Shown: in pieces, positions 3,784-61,683 of the stretch
Layout of the letters: each line of letters begins with the position of its first letter
Numbering within the stretch: the stretch's first letter is position 1
NCBI GenBank assembly: GCA_016860985.1
Contig: BOKM01000001.1
Location: forward strand, 92,185 to 156,184
Source of the DNA: Patescibacteria group bacterium
Lineage (GTDB): Bacteria > Patescibacteriota > Dojkabacteria > GCA-002793355
Reading direction: 5' to 3'
Length of the DNA stretch: 64,000 bases
Translations under genes and position numbers: made by a program
The notes under the pieces: generated by a model
Told to the model about the DNA's origin: nothing
The model's database searches: none
Seen by the model: the letters and a program-made list of their open reading frames with translations, nothing else

Positions 3784-5682
3784 CTACCTCATAAGCATCT
3801 CGGGTTTGCTATCTGGGTAGGTTACTTTTAACGCAGCATCAAGTTTTGCTGCATCTGAAGTAGAGACCGTAGCAAACGGAAGTGCTTTTACTGCATCTGC
3901 CAAGCGTGTTTTGGTACTAAGATTTGATTGGATTACCACAGTAACGTCTTTATAGGTAAACACTACAAATACATCGGTATACATTGGCTCTGCGACTTTA
4001 AGCCTTTCTACTTCGTCTACTGCGACACCAGAATCACCAGGTTCTGAGCTCCCAGGTGCACTGTCGGCAACTGGTGACTGAGTCATCTCAAACAGTTCTG
4101 CAGTAACACTCTCACCATTAAGAGTAATGGTTGTTGAACCTTTACCTGAGAGTGAAGATTTTTCGATTCCCATCTCTGTGATTGCTGCAATTCCTTTCAA
4201 TTGTGAAGGAAGTTCAGAGATTGAAAGCCATGAGAAGGCACCTGTTCCATTATACGAAAGGTGTACTTGAGGATACGTTTTGCCCTCTTCTAGATATGGT
4301 TTGAACATATCCTTCGCATCATTGTACTGTGTTTGCCCATATGCGAGTGGTGAGTAAAAGGCTCGATCAATCATATATTTCTGGGGCTCAGGCACGAGAG
4401 TAACATACGATGAAGATAGTGACTGTAACGTATACTTGCCTGAAAGGTATACAACGTTTGATACATTCTTTGGAAGGTATTCAAGAACTGCCTTTCGGTA
4501 TTCCTCATCATACTTGTAGGCGCTGGCATCGATCGTTCGAATATCGTTTGAGAGATTGAACGTAAAATCACTTTTTACTGCATCGAAGGAAGAAACAGTG
4601 CTTGATTCTTCGACAGTGCTTCTGGAGTAAAGCATATTGCCATTCTTTACTGCATCGAGATAGATGGTTTCTTGATCGATTGAAAAATCTTTGGAATCTG
4701 CAAGTGCAACCACTACGATTTTTTGATCAAAATCCATAGAAGTAACGCTTGTACTCGCGTCTCCTTCGTTCTTTGTTGTGCAGCCGCCCATGTATGACCA
4801 CTGAACTTTGTAGTATTCTTTCCCGTTTTCTGTAACCGTGCCAAGAACTTTTGCATCCTCGCCAAAGTAGTTTTTAATTATCTCCTTTGGATCTGTATCG
4901 GTTGGAACTGGTGTTTTTTCAGGCAACGCAATAAGTGTCTGTTCTGTTCCATCGACTGGTGGTGCTGCGACATCTGCAGCTTCATCTTTTTCTGCAACTC
5001 CAGACATATACGCAAGCGGCATTACTCGTTCAACATTTTTTAATTGAACTGCGTAACTTCCACCCTTGTAGAGCCATTGCGTTGAATCAGCAATCAACAA
5101 GTAATCGTAAATATTACTTCCTGAATACGAAACATTTTTTGTATAAAGTGGAAACATTTCATCTTTTGTTGTGTAGTATTCAGAGTACTCCTCTGCACTA
5201 ACCGCCCCTTGATATGGGACCATCATCGAACATCTATTTAAGGCATCACCGATTGCATAGGTTGTCTTTGTCTTTTTGTAATTATAGGTACGTTCTTCGG
5301 GGTTTCTAATATACAAGGCACTAATCTTTTCATCTGCAGAGAGCATCGTTGCCGTAGCATCTTTTGTTCCCTCCTTTTTTGTCGAAAGATTTGCTTGTGC
5401 AATTTTTGCAAGAATAGCATCTTGCTCTGCCGTTGTGGGTGCTTTATACCAGAACTGGTAAGTAGAGGCAGCAATACCTACTGTTGCGACTACTGCAACC
5501 GCACCAAGCTGAAAAACTTTTGGTGACAGCTTCATAATAAATGATGTGATTAAATTACTGTGAGGTCGATGAGTATCTGCCTCAGAAAGTACCCTTGATT
5601 TAAGGGTATCAACAAACTCTGCCCGAGGAGTCGCGTACTCTTCGAACAATTTTTGCATTTCTTTTTCTGATTCGTTATTCAT
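3784..5682 (-). CDS. Putative anti-sigma factor: short cytoplasmic N-terminus, one TM, very large extracytoplasmic domain
   Basis: It overlaps the upstream ECF sigma gene by 8 nt, so the two are in an operon. A single TM lies at about aa 45-75 (LGAVAVVATVGIAASTY). No catalytic motifs were recognised. Confidence 0.5.
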   Translation of the reverse strand: MNNESEKEMQKLFEEYATPRAEFVDTLKSRVLSEADTHRPHSNLITSFIMKLSPKVFQLGAVAVVATVGIAASTYQFWYKAPTTAEQDAILAKIAQANLSTKKEGTKDATATMLSADEKISALYIRNPEERTYNYKKTKTTYAIGDALNRCSMMVPYQGAVSAEEYSEYYTTKDEMFPLYTKNVSYSGSNIYDYLLIADSTQWLYKGGSYAVQLKNVERVMPLAYMSGVAEKDEAADVAAPPVDGTEQTLIALPEKTPVPTDTDPKEIIKNYFGEDAKVLGTVTENGKEYYKVQWSYMGGCTTKNEGDASTSVTSMDFDQKIVVVALADSKDFSIDQETIYLDAVKNGNMLYSRSTVEESSTVSSFDAVKSDFTFNLSNDIRTIDASAYKYDEEYRKAVLEYLPKNVSNVVYLSGKYTLQSLSSSYVTLVPEPQKYMIDRAFYSPLAYGQTQYNDAKDMFKPYLEEGKTYPQVHLSYNGTGAFSWLSISELPSQLKGIAAITEMGIEKSSLSGKGSTTITLNGESVTAELFEMTQSPVADSAPGSSEPGDSGVAVDEVERLKVAEPMYTDVFVVFTYKDVTVVIQSNLSTKTRLADAVKALPFATVSTSDAAKLDAALKVTYPDSKPEMLMR

Positions 5683-6259: not shown

Positions 6260-6907
6260 GTGTACAATAAGAATATGAAAATACAATACACAATAATCAC
6301 TGCACTGATAATAGCTGCGATAATAGCAACCGTCTATGTGTATCCGTTGCTCCCAGAACTCGTTCCTAGTCACTGGAATGCACTAGGCGAAGTTGATGCC
6401 TACGCCAAAAAGAATGTACACGTCACGTTTATGCTTGGAATCTGTATTGCACTCCCGATATTTATGAGAATCCTTCCAAAACTCGATCCAAAGTACAAGA
6501 ATATACAATCCTTTGAAGGTGATTTTGCATGGTTTACCGTTGTCTTCACTCTTTTTATGATTGCACTATACGCATACACCACACTTTATGCTCTAGGATA
6601 CCAATACCCTATTCAATCATTTATCATTCCTGCCATGTCAGTACTCTTTTACACAACCGGACTTCTACTTGCAAAAGCAAAACCCAATTACTCAATTGGC
6701 TTTAGACTTCCATGGACTCTAGACAGCGAAGACAATTGGAACAAAACACACAAAATTGCTGCCTTAAGTTTTAGATATGGGGCTTTCGCGTTATTACTTA
6801 CAACACTTCTTGGTAAATACTCCTTTTCGGTGTTTATGATTGCGCTCTCCTTCATGGTTATTATACCGATCATGTACTCGTACCGACTTCATAAAACTTC
6901 ACGTTAG
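6260..6907 (+). CDS. SdpI/YhfL-family (DUF1648) integral membrane protein
   Basis: The N-terminal TM is followed by the motif VPSHWNALGEVD. Four more TM segments follow. Confidence 0.55.
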   Translation: MYNKNMKIQYTIITALIIAAIIATVYVYPLLPELVPSHWNALGEVDAYAKKNVHVTFMLGICIALPIFMRILPKLDPKYKNIQSFEGDFAWFTVVFTLFMIALYAYTTLYALGYQYPIQSFIIPAMSVLFYTTGLLLAKAKPNYSIGFRLPWTLDSEDNWNKTHKIAALSFRYGAFALLLTTLLGKYSFSVFMIALSFMVIIPIMYSYRLHKTSR

Positions 6908-24363: not shown

Positions 24364-26790
24364 TTACTCCCCCTTATTTTCTACCCACCTCTGGATCTTT
24401 TCTTCTATCACATCTCGGGGAACAGCATACTTTTCACGTGATTTCTGTTTAATAATGTCTTTGTACCCAAAAGGTTGATACCTAAAGGGCATAGATACTG
24501 CGCTAAATGGCTCTGAAATACGGTCATTAATCGTCATTCGAAGATAAAGGTGGTAATTCGGCAAAGATAGAATATCTTCAGGGGTCACATACGGCGCAAA
24601 TTCTTGCGAAAGTACCATCGCGTCTTTTTGGCTAACGCTAAAGGTAATCATTGTACCAACATTACCAAAAATACCCGCTCGCATTTCAATGGGGAGTTGT
24701 TCGGTAAATTGATGGTTAATTACCAAAGACAAACGATATTTTCGCGCCTCGGAAAGGATATTCACAAACGCATCGGTCGTAAAGCTTTGCACCTCATCTA
24801 TATACAAACTAAAGTCGTTGCGTTCGTCATCGGGCATGTCTACCCTTTCCATTGCTGCGGTGTAAATACGAGCAATGAGCAAACCTCCAAGAAGTGACGT
24901 ATTTTCTTCGCCGATTCGACCTTTCGAGAGATTGGCTATAAAGATCTTTTTGCTGTCAATCATTTCTCGTATATTAAAGGTCGATTTTGTTTGACCAAGA
25001 ATATTTCGTGTAATACGTGGAGAAAGATAACGGCCGATTTTGTTTTGAATTGGCGCTACAGTATCCGAAAGAAGCTTTCTGTTTTCTTCAATCATGCTGA
25101 ATTCTTCTCTCCAAAAGCGAAGAATCATTGGATCTTTTACGTGCGACAAAACTCTTCGCCTATATTCTCCATCCGTTAACATGCGCTGAACAGAAAGGAG
25201 TGTTGTCCCTTGAGAATCGAGTGCAGAAAGAATTGTATTGTAAAGAATATACTCTAAACGTGGCCCCCATGAATCAAAGTACTTTTTAAACACGCCAATA
25301 ATATTGTCTGCAACTAAGTCGCGCTGTGACTTATCTTTAACGTATATTGGGTTAAAACCGACTGGATATTCAACATCTCCAGGGTTAAAGTAAATGACAT
25401 CATCAACACGATGCGCAGGAATGTGATCGAGAATAAACTCAGCTGTTTCTCCGTGTGGATCGATAAGTCCAACACCTTCGCCTGCCATAATATCCGAAAC
25501 AATCATATTTCGCATAAGAACCGTTTTACCAGTACCTGTACGACCAATAATGTATGCATGGCGACGTTTATCATTCTTTTTTATGCCAAACATCTGACTT
25601 TCACCACGGTAATTTGTTTTTGCGATTATCGTGCCTTCGTCGATTGGGAGATCTACAGGTGGTGGTAACTTTCCTGCTGTTGTTACAAACAATGACGTTG
25701 CTCCGCCGGTTGTATTCGGCAGATGGTACAACGATGCGATTTCTTCAATATTAAGAATCTCTGGGTGCTGCAAACTCAAGTAACGCTCCTTCATATGAGT
25801 AAATACTTGCAACGGCGCTTTTGCAAGGTGAAGGGAGAAAGCATTTAAGTGTGCGGTTGCATATTGCCTAAAAGAGGCAGCAATCCCTTCAAATATCTGA
25901 ACTGCTCTAGTTGGTTCACTACTTTTCGCTAATATTCTAATTGAAACCTGAAATCCTTGTTTTTCTGCCTTTGCCTCAACTCGCTTAATTTCTTCTTCTT
26001 GATATGGTTCGAGACGTACAGTAGGTGCTTTTGGCTGTTGCTGAGGTTTTGTTGGATCATAGGTTAATGAATCAAAAAAATATCGAAAGAATCCTGAAAT
26101 AACACCCCAAAACGCCTTCCAAAATCCCCCACTTTTATCAAATATATTACTACCCTCAGCTCTCAGTGCAGAAATATACTTTTGCGAAACCTTTTGCCAC
26201 AGGTTTGGGTACGGTCGAATAGTAAACTGAATCCACGCTTCTTCGTCGCCGTGTAACTCGCTAATTGCACCAGTAATGCCAGAAAGGGGGTCGACATCAA
26301 AATCCTTAAAGGTTTTTAAAGGGAAAATATGTTCTCGTTCAAGAATAATTTCGCCGGCAGAAACCTGAACCGTAGAATCCCACATTGTGGCTGTATCCAT
26401 ATAATCGGGAATAACAGAAATTTCTGCTGCCGGGTACTGTGCGTACACCTGCCCTTTTACAAACGATGCAATTTCTTCGTTCACAATAATAAAAAACTGT
26501 ACTCCTACTTTTGAGTTCGCAGCCAGCTCGAGTGAAAGCATTGGTACTGTGGCTGTTTCCTTGTATAACCCATGTAAAGAGGCAAACAGCTGCTCAGCTG
26601 CAAGTGGCGTTTTATCGTTATTACGTGGAACTGCAATTTTAAGTACTACTTTTTTATTTCCGAGTAATTTTTCTTCTGCACCACTTGGAAAGGCTTCATC
26701 CCCCTTCTTTTTTGTTGCAAAAAGAGCAATCACCAGTACAAACAATATAACAACGAGAAGTATGAGAAGAAGGACTAAACCGAGATTCAT
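24364..26790 (-). CDS. Membrane-anchored P-loop ATPase of the VirB4/TraG-VirD4/FtsK-HerA clade
   Basis: There is an N-terminal TM. Walker A (YIIGRTGTGKTVLM) lies at about aa 420 and Walker B (FSLYIDEVQSF) at about aa 655. The clade-typical ARKYRLSLVINHQ motif follows. Confidence 0.55.
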   Translation of the reverse strand: MNLGLVLLLILLVVILFVLVIALFATKKKGDEAFPSGAEEKLLGNKKVVLKIAVPRNNDKTPLAAEQLFASLHGLYKETATVPMLSLELAANSKVGVQFFIIVNEEIASFVKGQVYAQYPAAEISVIPDYMDTATMWDSTVQVSAGEIILEREHIFPLKTFKDFDVDPLSGITGAISELHGDEEAWIQFTIRPYPNLWQKVSQKYISALRAEGSNIFDKSGGFWKAFWGVISGFFRYFFDSLTYDPTKPQQQPKAPTVRLEPYQEEEIKRVEAKAEKQGFQVSIRILAKSSEPTRAVQIFEGIAASFRQYATAHLNAFSLHLAKAPLQVFTHMKERYLSLQHPEILNIEEIASLYHLPNTTGGATSLFVTTAGKLPPPVDLPIDEGTIIAKTNYRGESQMFGIKKNDKRRHAYIIGRTGTGKTVLMRNMIVSDIMAGEGVGLIDPHGETAEFILDHIPAHRVDDVIYFNPGDVEYPVGFNPIYVKDKSQRDLVADNIIGVFKKYFDSWGPRLEYILYNTILSALDSQGTTLLSVQRMLTDGEYRRRVLSHVKDPMILRFWREEFSMIEENRKLLSDTVAPIQNKIGRYLSPRITRNILGQTKSTFNIREMIDSKKIFIANLSKGRIGEENTSLLGGLLIARIYTAAMERVDMPDDERNDFSLYIDEVQSFTTDAFVNILSEARKYRLSLVINHQFTEQLPIEMRAGIFGNVGTMITFSVSQKDAMVLSQEFAPYVTPEDILSLPNYHLYLRMTINDRISEPFSAVSMPFRYQPFGYKDIIKQKSREKYAVPRDVIEEKIQRWVENKGE

Positions 26791-45298: not shown

Positions 45299-45856
45299 CT
45301 AAAGAAGCCTTCTTGGTTTTAAAAGTACCCCAAAAAAGGAGATTAGCGCGAGTGTACCCATAACATAGAACAAACTCGTAAACCCGAACTTGGTTGCCAG
45401 GTAGCCACCAAGAATTGCTCCCGCGGCGACCAATACATTGCTTAAGACCTTCCAAAGTGAGTATTCTTTGACGTGTTTGTTTTTATCAATATGCTCTGCC
45501 ACCATTACCTCAAAAGCAGGAGTTCCTACTGCTTCTCCGAGACCAAGGACCACCTGAACAACGAGTAGTGAATAAAAATTACCAGCAATTAGGAACATGA
45601 ACCACCCAAAAGCTCGTAATAGATAGCCAGCAAGGAGTAAATATTCTTTCTCCTTAATCGTATCTCCGAAAGAAGCAACGATCAGGGACCCTATTGTTGC
45701 GACGAACATATATGTTGCCCACAAAATCGACACCGTAGCAACGCTTTGAGTAATTCCTTCAGCATAAAGCGAATAGAGTGGACCAAGAATACTCCCTCCA
45801 AACACAAAAATACCATTGTATAAAAACAAGACCTTGAGCGCTTTATTATTTTTCAC
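45299..45856 (-). CDS. Half-size (6-TM) MFS-like membrane protein; possibly a truncated transporter
   Basis: It has six TM helices and an MFS motif-A-like loop (GDTIKEKEY). No second MFS half lies downstream. Confidence 0.35.
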   Translation of the reverse strand: MKNNKALKVLFLYNGIFVFGGSILGPLYSLYAEGITQSVATVSILWATYMFVATIGSLIVASFGDTIKEKEYLLLAGYLLRAFGWFMFLIAGNFYSLLVVQVVLGLGEAVGTPAFEVMVAEHIDKNKHVKEYSLWKVLSNVLVAAGAILGGYLATKFGFTSLFYVMGTLALISFFGVLLKPRRLL

Positions 45857-45926: not shown

Positions 45927-45999
45927 TGCCCCAGGCGAGAGTCGAACTCACAACCTTTCCCTTAGGACGGGACTGCTCTATCCATTGAGCTACTGGGAC
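45927..45999 (-). tRNA. tRNA-Arg (anticodon CCU); no CCA is encoded
   Basis: The cloverleaf has a 7-bp acceptor stem with one G-U pair (GUCCCAG/CUGGGGC). The D-arm is GCUC/GAGC. The anticodon loop is GUCCUAA and the T-loop is UUCGACU. Confidence 0.8.
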
Positions 46000-57684: not shown

Positions 57685-57728
57685 GTCAGATTATAGCGGA
57701 TAACAGTGTTTTGAAAGAGATACACAAA

Positions 57729-57842
57729 GGGATTCGGTCACCACGCGGAAGTTTTGTTCTCTTTGCTCCAAAACATCACGCTCCCTGGTTCTTTTGACAA
57801 CAAATTGTTGTTGACTCACTCCCGTTTCGAATCCCTCTGTTG
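57729..57842. repeat. Copy A of a ~115-bp tRNA-trailer-associated element; inverted relative to copy B
   Basis: The reverse complement aligns to 59529-59647. The 5' 55 nt are about 93% identical and the overall identity is about 80%. It contains an internal hairpin (caacaa...ttgttg). Confidence 0.6.
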
Positions 57843-57961
57843 AATCTTCCTTTTTATTAAAATTCTCTCTTTCATTCCGTTTTTAGAAAAATTCGGTTCA
57901 TGACCGTAACTAAAAAGAACTGGTTTCTTTTTAGTAGGGAATGAGAGAATTTTAATGAAAA

Positions 57962-58048
57962 CGGAGAGGGAGGGATTCGAACCCTCGATACGGAAAACCG
58001 TATGCTACTTTTCGAGAGTAGTGCCATCAACCACTCAGCCACCTCTCC
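57962..58048 (-). tRNA. tRNA-Ser (anticodon CGA) with a long variable arm; no CCA is encoded
   Basis: The acceptor stem is GGAGAGG/CCUCUCC. The D-stem has 3 bp. The anticodon loop is CUCGAAA. The 18-nt variable arm forms a hairpin. The T-arm is GAGGG-UUCGAAU-CCCUC. Confidence 0.85.
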
Positions 58049-58131
58049 GTATTTCTCCCGTATTATAGTATGCCTACAGATATCCGTCTATCACTCGTTG
58101 CACGATTAAAAACTTCAGAGTACAGTATTTT

Positions 58132-58764
58132 ATGAACAATGTTAGAACACTTCTTCCACCTCTTTTTCAAGATTTTGGACCATCTTCGTCACTAGAAACC
58201 GCGATTGCCGAAAATAGATGGATTGCGACTGTAAACTTATGGATTTTGCAGACAGAGCCTGTCCCTTCGATTCTCTATCAACAACGAAGCATGAATAAAA
58301 GTTGGGCTCCAGGCAAACTTGATGTCGTAGCAGGCGGAAAAGTAGACGAGGGGGAGTCACTCATTGAAACATTATTACGGGAAACCAAAGAAGAGATCGG
58401 GCTCGATGTTCCGCCTTCGGCGTGTACATACATTGGAAAACGGCTTCATGTTGGCGAAACGCAGTATGGATTTCAAAATACCGTATTAAACCTTTACTTC
58501 ACAGTATACAACCAACCCCTTTCTGAATATGTTCTACAGAAAGAAGAAGTCGCTGGAATTTATAACCTTGATATTGATCTGCTTCTTAAACTACATCGTG
58601 GAGAGCTGGAGAGTTTTTGGGCAACAGGCCTGGATGATAGTGGTAGTGAATCTAAAATCAACATTACACCAGCATTGTTCCCTGAAAATTGGGATAACTA
58701 CCACCAAAAGATTGCAGAACTAGCCAAAAAGTATTTTGAAGGTGTAGCAGATATAGTGTATTAG
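58132..58764 (+). CDS. NUDIX hydrolase
   Basis: The Nudix box is GGKVDEGESLIETLLRETKEEIGLDV. Confidence 0.8.
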   Translation: MNNVRTLLPPLFQDFGPSSSLETAIAENRWIATVNLWILQTEPVPSILYQQRSMNKSWAPGKLDVVAGGKVDEGESLIETLLRETKEEIGLDVPPSACTYIGKRLHVGETQYGFQNTVLNLYFTVYNQPLSEYVLQKEEVAGIYNLDIDLLLKLHRGELESFWATGLDDSGSESKINITPALFPENWDNYHQKIAELAKKYFEGVADIVY

Positions 58765-58797
58765 TACCCTTTTACACACACTTATTTGCGAGTATAA

Positions 58798-59394
58798 TTG
58801 TTCATGAATAGAAATGATTTTATCGTTGCACTTCAGCAACAACTTGAACCAAATATAGTTCGCCATTCTTTCGCAGTAGAAGCGTGTATGGAGGGTATAT
58901 ATGACTATCTTCAGTCACAAGGTCGTATCACAGCCTCAGAACCAGATAAAGCTGATTGGCTACTCGCAGGGCTCATCCATGATTGCGACTTCGGTGGAGA
59001 ATTCAAAGCAGAACACCCAGCACACACACGTGATATGTTAAAAAAATACAATCTCGAAATTTCTGATACTGTTCTCAATATCGTCAAAGCACATGCACCT
59101 GAACTTACTGGTTATGCACCCCAAAATCTTGCCGAATGGTCAATCTTTTGTGTTGACAGCTTAACTGGTTTAATAACTGCAGTAGCGTATGTTTACCCCT
59201 CAAGAAAGATTGCAGACGTAAAAGTATCATCTGTGCTAAAACGATTCTTAAAAGAACCAAAATTTGCTGCAGGAACACGAAGAAACGAAGTGGCAATGTG
59301 TGAAAAAGCAGACGGGCTTAACATTCCTCTTGAAAAGTTCATAGAAATCTCGCTAACATCGATGCAAAGAATAGCTCCAGCTCTAGAGTTATAA
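58798..59394 (+). CDS. HD-domain phosphohydrolase
   Basis: The H...HD metal motif is present (HSFAVEAC...GLIHDCDFGG). Confidence 0.55.
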   Translation: MFMNRNDFIVALQQQLEPNIVRHSFAVEACMEGIYDYLQSQGRITASEPDKADWLLAGLIHDCDFGGEFKAEHPAHTRDMLKKYNLEISDTVLNIVKAHAPELTGYAPQNLAEWSIFCVDSLTGLITAVAYVYPSRKIADVKVSSVLKRFLKEPKFAAGTRRNEVAMCEKADGLNIPLEKFIEISLTSMQRIAPALEL

Positions 59395-59408
59395 GCAAGC
59401 TCACAAAA

Positions 59409-59481
59409 AGCTCTCGTAGTCTAATCGGATAAAACACTAGCTTCCGGAGCTGGATTTGTGGGTTCGAGTCCCGCCGAGAGC
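59409..59481 (+). tRNA. tRNA-Arg (anticodon CCG); no CCA is encoded
   Basis: The acceptor stem is GCUCUCG/CGAGAGC. The anticodon stem-loop is CUAGC-UUCCGGA-GCUGG. The T-arm is GUGGG-UUCGAGU-CCCGC. There is one non-canonical pair in the D-stem. Confidence 0.7.
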
Positions 59482-59528
59482 ATATTGTATCTGGTATATG
59501 ATTTAGACAGACAGATACGATATGCATA

Positions 59529-59647
59529 CAACGAGGGATTCGAAACGTGAGTGAGACAACAACAATTTGTTGTCGAAAGAACCGGGGGTCGAGGAGCGAG
59601 CGTTTTCAGAGCAAAGGAATGAAAATGCCGCGAGGTGACCGAGTCCC
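59529..59647. repeat. Copy B of the ~115-bp tRNA-trailer-associated element
   Basis: It aligns to the reverse complement of 57729-57842. It contains a perfect 8-bp hairpin (gacaacaa-caat-ttgttgtc). Confidence 0.6.
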
Positions 59648-59660
59648 GCCGAGAGCATAT
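59640..59660 (+). repeat. 21-bp perfect direct duplicate of the tRNA-Arg(CCG) 3' end (cgagtcccgccgagagcatat); att-like
   Basis: It is identical to 59464-59484, which runs from the tRNA T-loop to 3 nt past the 3' end. Confidence 0.6.
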
Positions 59661-59672
59661 ATAACAAAATCC

Positions 59673-60740
59673 TTAAACCAAGAACATATTAATCAATTTC
59701 TGAAAGAGATTGTTGTTGTTCATATACTGATCAAAGATAATGTGTTCAATTCCAGCATTTTGGGCAAATTGTGAATCGACTTCACTATCACCGAAATAGA
59801 TGAATTCTTTTGGAGGAATTCCTATTCTGTTGATTAAGTCGGACAAACAATAGGGATTCGGTTTTTTGTACCCTGCGTCAGCACAAGAAATTATCTCGTC
59901 AAAATAGGCGGAGATTCCATTGTACTCAAGTACTTTATTGAGTAATACTTTTGAACGATTGGTACAAATATACAATTTACGACCACGCTGCTTGAGCAGC
60001 TGTAACATTTCGATAACACCATCAAAAAGCTTCATTCTCTGAATATTCTCCTGCTGAATGACCTTATCGTAGGCAAGCAATTTTTTGATATCTGCCTTAA
60101 TTCCAAGATCCTTTAAAATAGTCACATATAAATCTTCAATCGCCATACCTCTTACGGAGTCATGTATCTGACAGATTAAATCAAAGTCGGCTGCAGGTAC
60201 TTGCGAGGTTATGGAGCGTGCAATTGTTTCTCCGCAGAATTTCCTTCCATCGACCAACGTATCATCTAAATCGAAGACAAAGGCACGCTTTGGAGCACTA
60301 CGTTCCTGGTCATTTTGGGCGTTTGAGGCGTTAGCTTCATCGCCATCAGTAAAAAAATATCCTAGTGGTTTTCCAACAATAACTGCGATTTGCTCCAATC
60401 GCTCAACCGAAAGTGGTACAGCACCAAGTTCATAACGACTAACCATTACTTCGGTGCATTTTAAGCGATCAGATAACTGTTTTTGCGTGAGTCCGACCTC
60501 TTGCCTTGCTAATTTTACTTTTTCTCCAATTGACAACTTCATCGATGAATTATACATCCCATTACTAGTACTGCCAATATGTGCACTGTCGTGTATGGCT
60601 AGGATATGATACGATTCTGATATGGAACTCCCAATTTCGCATAAAATAGTTTCGCAGCTCACACGTGTTGAGTACTTACTTGCAACACTCCCCAGAGGTA
60701 TTGATTTTGACTCATTTCTAAAAAAGCAGTCTAAAGACAA
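59673..60740 (-). CDS. Fusion protein: XRE-family HTH DNA-binding domain plus a HAD-superfamily phosphatase domain; the probable start is the internal MKLSIGEK, about nt 60542
   Basis: The HTH is KVKLARQEVGLTQKQLSDRLKCTEVMVSRYELG. HAD motif I is FVFDLDDTLVDG. HAD motif IV is GDSEVDSQFAQNAG. Confidence 0.6.
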   Translation of the reverse strand: MSLDCFFRNESKSIPLGSVASKYSTRVSCETILCEIGSSISESYHILAIHDSAHIGSTSNGMYNSSMKLSIGEKVKLARQEVGLTQKQLSDRLKCTEVMVSRYELGAVPLSVERLEQIAVIVGKPLGYFFTDGDEANASNAQNDQERSAPKRAFVFDLDDTLVDGRKFCGETIARSITSQVPAADFDLICQIHDSVRGMAIEDLYVTILKDLGIKADIKKLLAYDKVIQQENIQRMKLFDGVIEMLQLLKQRGRKLYICTNRSKVLLNKVLEYNGISAYFDEIISCADAGYKKPNPYCLSDLINRIGIPPKEFIYFGDSEVDSQFAQNAGIEHIIFDQYMNNNNLFQKLINMFLV

Positions 60741-61683
60741 TCAAACGACTGATGTACTCACACTTGCTGCCACAACAGATTACACGATAGACGAGGAAAC
60801 TGCACGCATGTTACTGGAATCAAAAACTGGTTTTCCCACACAACAGAATTTCAGGTTTCTCTTCAACTGCATTACAGTCCTTCATTCTGCGCGAAACCTT
60901 CGAGAGAACGCTTTTAACTCTGCCCTTTTGCAACAATACAACAAACTCATTTCAGATGGATTTACTGACTTTTGGGAAGAAGGTAAAGTTCGAGCTGCAC
61001 ATGAGACCCCTGCCACAACATACGACAGTTTACGGAATAAGCCTCCACATTTTGAGTATCAAATGTGGATTGATGTGCGACAGACGCTCAGTTACTCGGA
61101 ATCAATTATTCATCCACTTCTCTCTGCCGCTTCAACACTTTACCATCTTATTTACAGCTACCCATTTTTGCAGTTTAATCTTCAAACAGCACTTCTGAGT
61201 ACAAATGCTAACGTTCGCCCTTCTCGCTACTATGCATCAGGAACGGTCTCAACAATAAAAGCTGCATGGAATACCCTTCATCGTACTGATTTTACATTCT
61301 CACCTGCCCCACACCACTTCACCCAATTCAGTGAGAGATTTATAGATGAATACTTGTCACAACTTGAAAGCATCCACGACACACTTACACACAGGACCTC
61401 ACTCCCAAGTCACATCAGAACATCGCTAAACGACAGGCAATTAAAAATTCTCTCTTATTTCAAACAATACAAAAAGATTACACGAAAGAAGTACGCGAAA
61501 ACGATGAAGGTTGCGATTGCTACCGCATTCAGAGATCTTAATGACTTAGCCTCAAAAGGGCTTATTGCGACCGTTGGAAAAGGAAGAGCAACAAGCTATA
61601 TTCTCCCAAACCAAACAGAAGCAGAACTCCGCCAAGAAACTATGCCACAAAGAGAAGTTATCGCTACTGTAATCGACGACTAG
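60622..61683 (+). CDS. Fic/DOC-like protein with a degenerate active-site motif and a C-terminal winged HTH
   Basis: The position equivalent to HPFx(D/E)GNGR reads IHPLLSAASTLYHLI. The C-terminus (LNDRQLKILSYF...RDLNDLASKGLIATVGKGRATSYIL) matches the Fic-associated wHTH. Confidence 0.45.
   Translation: MELPISHKIVSQLTRVEYLLATLPRGIDFDSFLKKQSKDNQTTDVLTLAATTDYTIDEETARMLLESKTGFPTQQNFRFLFNCITVLHSARNLRENAFNSALLQQYNKLISDGFTDFWEEGKVRAAHETPATTYDSLRNKPPHFEYQMWIDVRQTLSYSESIIHPLLSAASTLYHLIYSYPFLQFNLQTALLSTNANVRPSRYYASGTVSTIKAAWNTLHRTDFTFSPAPHHFTQFSERFIDEYLSQLESIHDTLTHRTSLPSHIRTSLNDRQLKILSYFKQYKKITRKKYAKTMKVAIATAFRDLNDLASKGLIATVGKGRATSYILPNQTEAELRQETMPQREVIATVIDD

Follow-up and report, generated by a model that had tools for sequence, protein, structure and literature searches.

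Here we analyze a stretch of 64,000 nucleotides, called the window, from contig BOKM01000001.1 (positions 92,185 to 156,184, forward strand) of a Patescibacteria group bacterium, in which a tRNA-Ser and a tRNA-Arg gene are each followed by a copy of one short structured element. The two elements are best read as old copies, vertically inherited and by now partly decayed, of a gene-less cassette family, new to the literature, in Patescibacteria, bacteria of the candidate phyla radiation (CPR), and both copies are probably no longer active. A cassette would consist of a replacement tRNA tail that starts at C56 (S), usually a terminator of its own (T), an arm antisense to the tail up to T54 (A), and a folded module (M). 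The architecture is common to copies behind three tRNA species (Ser, Arg, and Tyr) in two Patescibacteria lineages, and a search of the literature found no description of such an element.

The window locus is built around a pair of nucleotide-hydrolase genes. The initial annotation had tRNA-Ser(CGA) and tRNA-Arg(CCG) pointing away from a NUDIX gene and an HD gene, and ARAGORN and Rfam confirmed that arrangement with boundaries moved by at most one base. It had also reported two homologous elements of ~115 nt, ~80% identical overall and ~93% identical in their 5' halves. A repeat finder and pairwise alignment recovered the same relationship: an inverted repeat with 55-nt arms that are 93% complementary (57783-57837/59533-59587), another with 31-nt arms that are 81% complementary (57729-57759/59617-59647), and a mean column identity of 80% for copies A and B with their flanks. 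The 21-bp duplicate of the tRNA-Arg 3' end is exact (59465-59485 = 59640-59660; 21 of 21 identical) and lies one base from its first placement, and the proposed T-loop match at the end of copy A was found as well, in the T-loop and T-stem of tRNA-Ser. The window contains exactly two copies of a 42-nt core and exactly two of a 20-nt 3' motif, where 100 dinucleotide-preserving shuffles gave an expectation of 0. Loci fetched for comparison are labeled L001 to L041, and the parts of the window locus are as follows.

57728-57736, minus strand: distal S arm of unit A, CGAATCCCT, which repeats the T-loop and T-stem of tRNA-Ser in sense orientation, with orthologous arms in L027, L029, and L030
57737-57825, minus strand: module M of unit A, ending in GGTGAC, with junction ACG, hairpin H1 at ~57797-57814, and a long hairpin H2 whose apical loop is GAGCAAAGAGAA
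57826-57837, minus strand: A arm of unit A, GAGGGATTCGAA, antisense of the tRNA-Ser T-stem 3' strand and T-loop (tRNA positions 54-65; 12 of 12 match)
57838-57960, minus strand: T_A, the palindromic spacer from tRNA-Ser to element A, with 29-nt arms and inner A/U-rich hairpins; the palindrome runs on into the tRNA 3' end
57961-58049, minus strand: tRNA-Ser(CGA) (ARAGORN; Rfam tRNA, 56.2 bits), which supplies the proximal S arm of unit A with its last 18 nt, C56 onward
58132-58764: NUDIX gene
58804-59394: HD gene
59410-59482, plus strand: tRNA-Arg(CCG) (ARAGORN; Rfam tRNA, 56-57 bits); 59465-59485 cover the proximal S arm and 3 nt of trailer
59483-59532, plus strand: T_B, the palindromic spacer TATTGTATCTG...CAGATACGATA with a decayed outer antisense arm, TGCATACAAC, placed by antisense alignment
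59533-59544, plus strand: A arm of unit B, GAGGGATTCGAA, of Ser type rather than Arg type, whose pairing with the Arg-type S arm includes a U·G pair
59545-59639, plus strand: module M of unit B, with H1 at 59556-59573, the H2 foot GGGGGTCG from 59585, the apical loop GAGCAAAGGAA at 59609-59619, and a terminal GGTGAC at 59634-59639
59640-59660, plus strand: distal S arm of unit B, 21 bp that repeat tRNA-Arg exactly from C56 to its 3' end and 3 nt into the trailer

Each window element has the same layout, opening with the A arm and closing with a sense tRNA tail from C56, and its two ends pair as a stem, P1, around two hairpins. Because the element starts with the antisense of the tRNA-Ser T-arm, the closing stem is built from antisense and sense copies of the tRNA tail. 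Folded as RNA, copy B reaches -43.8 kcal/mol (z -3.56) and copy A -38.3 kcal/mol (z -1.76). Folded as DNA, the Arg-side palindrome (59462-59544) reaches -17 kcal/mol (z -5.2) and the S-T-A part of the Ser side -31 kcal/mol (z -6.1). The spacer T_A contributes an inverted repeat, I3 (57845-57873/57939-57967), that is 86% complementary, and it is kept in L027 and L030. No intrinsic terminator was predicted in the window spacers, and the units contain no open reading frame (ORF). Beyond the distal S arm of unit A lie ~25 nt of decayed tRNA tail and the start of T_A, and then the TATAAT box of an HD_4 gene. We note that this box (57697-57702, minus strand) directly follows the end of copy A, likewise in L027, L029, and L030, and that the cassette end may now form part of the HD_4 promoter region.

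The same architecture recurs behind tRNA-Tyr in a second lineage. A metagenome collection was scanned with a pattern based on the 3' foot and the conserved loop, including part of the tRNA T-loop, and the single match, FLOH01000029.1 (L033), lies directly downstream of tRNA-Tyr(GTA). A neighboring ClpB gene in L033 has homologs named Pacebacteria or Patescibacteria, and five syntenic loci from JGI, ENA, and NCBI assemblies were reached through ClpB homologs. Repeat units there run S, T, A, M, and then the next S. T is an AT-rich palindrome that forms a strong bidirectional terminator between tRNA and module, canonical in L037, and the antisense arm matches the local tRNA tail at 24 of 24 positions in L037, 24 of 25 in L033, and 20 of 21 in L035. 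The end of the antisense arm at TTCGAA, position 54, and the start of the sense arm at C56 are constant across copies. Together S, T, and A make near-perfect palindromes with arms of ~45 bp (DNA folds of -51 and -49 kcal/mol, z -19.7 and -16.8). The tail and the whole terminator, ~70 bp, are both part of the direct repeat in L037, and the module there is followed by its own terminator copy.

The tRNA-Tyr arrays are polar. Among genomes whose ClpB proteins are 79-91% identical, the number of units ranges from 0 (L041) through 1 (L037), 2 (L033), and 3 (L035), with L039 holding 1 plus 2 truncated remnants. The tRNA-adjacent copy is intact in all arrays and the distal copies are decayed. Two module subtypes occur, and their order is reversed between L033 and L035. 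Moreover, the proximal terminator of L035, T1, is unlike the T2 of its second unit, and T2 is the terminator of L037, L039, and L041; thus, the proximal terminator was imported rather than copied locally. L041 (5836-5925) carries tRNA-Tyr, a terminator palindrome, and a decayed antisense tail with no module, and it is either a deletion product or a palindrome without a module. In L035, the second cassette has an extra insert of ~105 nt with its own hairpin (6263-6367), exactly at the junction of module and S at the T-loop position, and this junction may have been hit a second time. We also note that the apical loops of L037 (5903-5909) and L039 (5987-5993) contain GCGAAGC and that of L035 (6052-6057) TAGCGA; GCGAAGC is presumably an unusually stable DNA mini-hairpin, which we offer as a lead only.

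The module links the two lineages. It is a three-way junction of ~100 nt made of the closing stem P1 (A paired with the next S), the variable H1, and the long H2. Its conserved and mostly unpaired parts are (A)ACG or AGG after the A arm, GAGC or GAGAC before the H2 foot, and a purine-rich apical loop, RAGCRAAGNGAA; the foot itself, GGGGTCG...GRCC, is also conserved. Short repeats, CG or CGAA behind tRNA-Ser and tRNA-Tyr and CGAG behind tRNA-Arg in L001, flank the module, whose boundaries are ambiguous by 2-4 nt. A covariance model built from the L037 and L039 modules only (R1) was run over 149 kb, and its only matches in the window were the two elements, 59529-59654 on the plus strand (E = 0.0025) and 57722-57841 on the minus strand (E = 0.012). 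Outside the window, this model also recovered the remaining Tyr copies and, in L001 and L030, the Arg copies. Rebuilt from nine copies (R2), the model scored copy B at 79.5 bits and copy A at 59.6 bits and recovered a minimal Ser copy of L030 on which it had not been trained (E = 4e-6), and ~150 kb of unrelated control loci gave nothing better than E = 6.

The fold is supported by covariation. In the alignment made with the model, 89.6% of cells are paired, compared with 30-44% when partners are slid, and 30 of the 42 pairs carry double-sided changes, a covariation score that 0 of 500 shuffles reached; these figures are somewhat inflated, since the alignment was fitted to the model. Single-sequence folds of eight copies, which are independent of the model, gave the same three-way junction. 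No Rfam 15 family matched the module: at gathering and permissive thresholds, the window region and five related loci returned only tRNA and spurious microRNA-precursor matches to long hairpins, in a search that covered hammerhead, HDV-like, twister, tmRNA, SRP, and YrlA families. A hammerhead or other ribozyme core was rejected on inspection of the junction strands by eye, where the 7-nt CUGANGA strand is absent, and the module itself is no terminator. A tRNA-derived module was rejected as well, with no tRNA match over the elements at E <= 10 and with comparisons to the tRNA body giving p of 0.04-1.0 against shuffles. The initial annotation had allowed that the elements might be confined to two sites or might be diverged pseudo-tRNA fragments without conserved structure. 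Neither proved to be the case: further copies stand directly downstream of tRNA genes, Ser and Arg in the window lineage and Tyr in the second, and the module is unlike the rest of the tRNA.

Relatives of the window lineage, represented by contigs from six further samples, show how the two elements have aged. The window NUDIX and HD_4 proteins have homologs named Woesebacteria or Patescibacteria, and in every relative the Ser-side element lies in the same place, between tRNA-Ser and the HD_4 promoter. Its form varies: L030, L031, and L032 (HD_4 identity, 70%) have a minimal form without H1; L027 and L028 have a strongly diverged form of ~190 nt; and L029 has lost the 5' arm through an 89-nt deletion between GAAACC microhomologies. 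On the Arg side, the element of L001 and L030 shares its 3' half with the window copy and differs from it in the 5' arm, GGGGCGAG, and in the H1 sequence. Because the orthologous Arg copy differs in this way, the 93% identity of the window 5' halves would be a gene-conversion tract in this genome, and gene conversion is probably the simplest account of that identity. In the same two loci, the working tRNA-Arg ends in GAGGGCA (with a U3·G70 pair) and the distal copy in GAGAGCA, which is how the tRNA ends in the window and in L002; thus, the tail now in use was imported and the original was displaced. In L001 and L030, tRNA-Arg and the element are only 14 nt apart, with no terminator between them. 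The apparent empty site in L002 is not one, as alignment revealed that the 3' half of the module and of the tRNA tail is still there in decayed form. The L029 deletion, the L002 remnant, and the diverged L027 copy are all decayed copies that support an old family.

The copies also need to be separated from the genes between them. The initial annotation had them bracket the NUDIX/HD cassette as terminal inverted repeats, a reading without support: they are independent tRNA-linked units and face each other only because the tRNA genes diverge. NUDIX/HD gene order is identical in L030, no inversion was seen, and there is no evidence that the hydrolase genes are cargo. Logan short-read contigs of three related species end at the tRNA-Ser 3' end or in the copy A antisense arm, at the following positions, and the palindromes and repeated tRNA tails seem to break short-read assemblies here.

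L001:1, L002:1, and L026:1: contig ends corresponding to window position 57961
L023:1, L024:1, and L025:1: contig ends corresponding to window position ~57844

How the cassettes might move can be sketched from their parts. We think it possible, at a little under an even chance, that they are a new family of nonautonomous cassettes with the tRNA T-loop as integration site and a tRNA 3' end of their own, which perhaps integrate as folded single strands. Integration at the T-loop would leave the original tail behind the cassette, seen in the window as the 21-bp repeat, and would regenerate an intact tRNA in front. Later cassettes would then enter beside the tRNA and push older ones outward to decay. 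In a single strand, pairing of A with S would rebuild the target duplex, capped by the conserved module. Since the A·S stem mimics the tRNA-gene target and G·U pairs are all but absent from the stems, we infer that the active form may be a folded single DNA strand served by a recombinase acting in trans. Architecture, homology between the lineages and among three tRNA species, covariation, polar arrays, and the import of S and T are observed; that the cassettes move, that a single-stranded intermediate exists, and which recombinase acts are inferred. The terminator between S and A would prevent read-through transcripts from pairing the antisense arm with the tRNA's own tail. A more specific version, which we regard as somewhat unlikely, is that the cassettes are a new class of rod-like, single-stranded minicircles of ~200 nt with the order S-T-A-M. 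Their stem would mimic the T-arm/acceptor duplex and their three-way-junction head would serve as an enzyme landing pad or single-strand origin. Entering at C56/G57, such a minicircle would restore the tRNA with a tail and terminator of its own, and arrays would build up.

Several observations weigh against movable cassettes of this kind. Both copies lie at the same place in all relatives of the window lineage, including the L002 remnant, with no sign of recent movement, and neither an excised or circular form nor a clean empty site was seen. Only 13 module copies, at about ten loci in two lineages, make up the family as known. Among 185,579 species genomes, a narrow pattern, GAGCAAAG..GGTGACCGANTCC, gave 19 matches, all of them unrelated coding sequence (an Acidobacteriota HTH gene) or chance, and among 2.9 million viral contigs five narrow patterns found no copy and one G+C-rich chance match (L034); blastn of phage and plasmid collections gave no match. 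A recombinase is likewise missing from the neighborhood. As the initial annotation had stated for integrases, Pfam found no integrase, transposase, Rep protein, recombinase, or reverse transcriptase in ~57 of the ~66 window ORFs of >=80 amino acids, whose matches are housekeeping families throughout. No such gene lies next to the module in L033, among the 8 ORFs scanned with Pfam, and no recombinase family appears in the gene tables near the arrays of L035, L037, and L039, where several small neighbors have no Pfam match on record. Finally, three features would also fit a cotranscribed RNA: folded as RNA, the sense strand outdoes the antisense strand in stability in 8 of 8 copies, purines prevail in the conserved unpaired stretches, and the short gap between tRNA and module in L001 and L030 lacks a terminator.

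On whether the conserved structure is DNA or RNA, the evidence is mixed with a lean toward DNA. Changes in the stems comprise 70 double-sided and 7 one-sided (G·U) cells, and in the four intact tRNA-Tyr copies 177 pairs are Watson-Crick and 3 are G·U. Structured RNAs usually have many more G·U pairs, and the scarcity here points to complementarity set at the level of DNA. (Counts of G·U versus A·C mismatches, taken as a test of strand-specific RNA selection, are biased by the folding algorithm and not decisive.) The duplication also runs past the tRNA end, into the trailer in the window and through the whole terminator in L037; thus, DNA was duplicated rather than mature tRNA, and with the free decay of distal copies this fits DNA events rather than constraints on a mature RNA. 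An unlikely alternative, which takes up the tRNA-trailer processing or termination module of the initial annotation, is nevertheless a structured noncoding RNA: a tRNA 3' trailer or small RNA gene behind tRNAs, the arrays being duplicated genes and pseudogenes, and the closing stem needing tRNA 3' sequence for, e.g., borrowed processing enzymes, an antisense regulator or decoy, or read-through control. The features of strand stability, loop composition, and spacing given above speak for it, as do a module orientation that is always that of the tRNA, the strongly covarying three-way junction with its conserved, purine-rich strands and loop, a core conserved between two lineages, and the canonical terminator that follows the L037 module. 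It fits poorly, however, with the rarity of G·U pairs, with the many truncated or decayed copies and the missing module of L041, and with the strong bidirectional terminators that separate tRNA from module in the Tyr loci. Moreover, a promoter scan found no sigma-70-like promoter in front of the modules, and no Rfam family matched.

Two further explanations keep the events at the DNA level and dispense with a cassette. Replication template switching at the palindromes of the TTCGAA-centered T-arm and the terminator, of the tandem-inversion-duplication or origin-dependent inverted-repeat amplification (ODIRA) type, could have made and kept the perfect stems, with the module as filler or hitchhiker. 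That template switching creates and maintains hairpins and inverted triplications is documented (PMC8794818 and PMC4689423). Junctions placed exactly at the T-loop TTCGAA and the terminator loop, the S-T-A of L041 that lacks a module, and stems with hardly any G·U pairs, which fits copying of one arm from the other, all agree with this process, and the direct-inverted-direct order with junctions at short palindromes is that of tandem inversion duplications. We nonetheless consider it quite improbable: the same ~100-nt module, which is not tRNA derived, stands at the cassette junction behind three tRNA species at unrelated loci in two lineages, beyond what local copying errors would give; the proximal terminator of L035 was imported; and sense and antisense T-loop copies both flank the module. 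The initial annotation had also proposed a decayed island scar. On this view, ordinary integrase-encoding prophages or genomic islands would have lost their interior and left attL, attR, and an attR-side arm. The direct repeat of the tRNA 3' end, which is the classical mark of tyrosine-recombinase integration and resembles attL/attR, is indeed present, and the imported proximal tail of L001 and L030 and the proximal-new, distal-old polarity are those of tRNA-integrating elements. That such scars explain the loci is, however, very doubtful. All eight loci (five Tyr and three window-lineage species with Ser/Arg) keep the same gene-less unit of <=~230 bp with no gene fragment or integrase remnant, and independent deletions would not share boundaries each time; the antisense tail and three-way-junction module are not classical attP-arm features, no integrase lies inside or adjacent, and the viral, phage, and plasmid searches described above gave no copy. 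A retroelement origin, in which the antisense arm was a primer-binding site for target-primed reverse transcription, was considered since the first bases of that arm in L033, TGG, lie opposite an encoded CCA. We set it aside, as the repeats include non-tRNA trailer, no reverse transcriptase was found, and group II introns are reported absent from Patescibacteria (PMC13011429).

Mobile cassettes of the proposed kind would share features with several known systems. Tycheposons integrate serially at tRNA genes, with the newest element beside the tRNA and decayed ones distal (doi 10.1101/2020.12.28.424599). Like these, other tRNA-integrating islands, and cis-mobilizable elements, the cassettes target a tRNA 3' end, bring a replacement tail, leave a partial tRNA copy at the far end, and lie in a new-proximal, decayed-distal order. 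Unlike them, the cassettes are 150-230 bp long, are gene-less, have no nearby integrase, and carry an extra antisense tail and a folded module, with homology that begins sharply at C56. Integron cassettes offer another likeness, in arrays of small promoterless units and in an imperfect attC hairpin with inverted core copies whose structure is better conserved than its sequence. Integron attC sites recombine as folded single strands. The cassettes, however, lack the R'' (RYYYAAC) and R' (GTTRRRY) motifs and have instead a foot of ...ATTCGAA/CGAAT..., target a tRNA T-loop, and conserve rather than vary their central part. No intI gene or attI site lies beside the arrays, and no tyrosine recombinase is in the scanned ORFs of the window or of L033.

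A folded single strand that mimics its target is also known from the CTX phage. In its attP(+), two inverted target-like sequences ~90 nt apart fold in single-stranded DNA and mimic the chromosomal target, and after integration one junction keeps an inverted copy, a ~90-nt spacer, and a hybrid site. CTX and other Xer-exploiting elements differ from the cassettes in having a dif target and a phage genome, where ours have a tRNA gene, and involvement of XerC/D is not indicated. The palindrome-associated transposable elements (PATEs) of the IS200/IS605 type and miniature inverted-repeat transposable elements (MITEs) are likewise short and noncoding, with subterminal hairpins and asymmetric ends, and the repeat flanking the module here, a candidate target-site duplication, is of 2-4 nt (CG or CGAA, CGAG). 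Of the three options in the initial annotation, a MITE-like element at tRNA 3' ends fits best, but neither fixed terminal inverted repeats nor a parent insertion sequence was found: the cassette arms copy the local target, differing among Ser, Arg, and Tyr, and Pfam gave no TnpA(Y1) or TnpB gene in the scanned ORFs of the 64-kb window. Moreover, every cassette copy found lies behind a tRNA gene, though the scan patterns required part of the T-loop. Finally, the single-strand origin ssoA of rolling-circle plasmids is a strand-specific paired structure of ~130-200 nt with a conserved short motif in its terminal loop. The cassette loops AAGCGA or TAGCGA resemble what we take to be the ssoA CS-6 motif, TAGCG(T/A). 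Both likenesses are leads only, and in contrast to ssoA the cassettes come with no Rep gene or double-strand origin.

The family bears on how small genomes are remodeled. Patescibacteria have tiny genomes and few recognized mobile elements, and here the sequence behind essential tRNA genes was remodeled repeatedly and with polarity, with no recombinase nearby. To our knowledge, hairpin-mediated integration has so far been seen in integrons and Xer-exploiting phages. If the cassettes do move as folded single strands, such integration would extend to tRNA genes and would point to a trans-acting enzyme in CPR bacteria. The minicircles, if real, would be a tRNA-targeted analogue of integron cassettes or of CTX-type hairpin integration in minimal-genome bacteria. 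Alternatively, were the module an RNA, a new class of structured RNAs would be physically tied to tRNA 3' ends. The palindromes and repeated tails also give rise to partial tRNA copies, which are liable to be misread by annotation pipelines.

A few observations concern the surroundings. ARAGORN found 3 tRNA genes in the window, and the third, tRNA-Arg(CCT) (45927-45999, minus strand), has no cassette downstream and adjoins a 185-amino-acid fragment of an MFS transporter (45299-45856, minus strand). An 808-amino-acid protein (24364-26790, minus strand) with a TrwB/VirD4-type coupling-protein domain and a HerA-like ATPase domain is encoded in otherwise housekeeping surroundings, and it is possibly a component of DNA transfer or DNA uptake. 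In L003, a distant NUDIX homolog (51% identity) lies near a tRNA-Ser with anticodon TGA (3842-3929), where the covariance models found no module. Copy B is adjoined by an HTH+HAD hydrolase gene (59673-60740, minus strand) that is missing from L002 (1587-1708), where tRNA-Arg is directly followed by the 353/357-amino-acid gene. The long HTH+HAD ORF of the window overlaps a divergent gene (60622-61683) by 118 nt. Its orthologs in L001 and L030 have 289-294 amino acids, and its true start is probably at ~60540.

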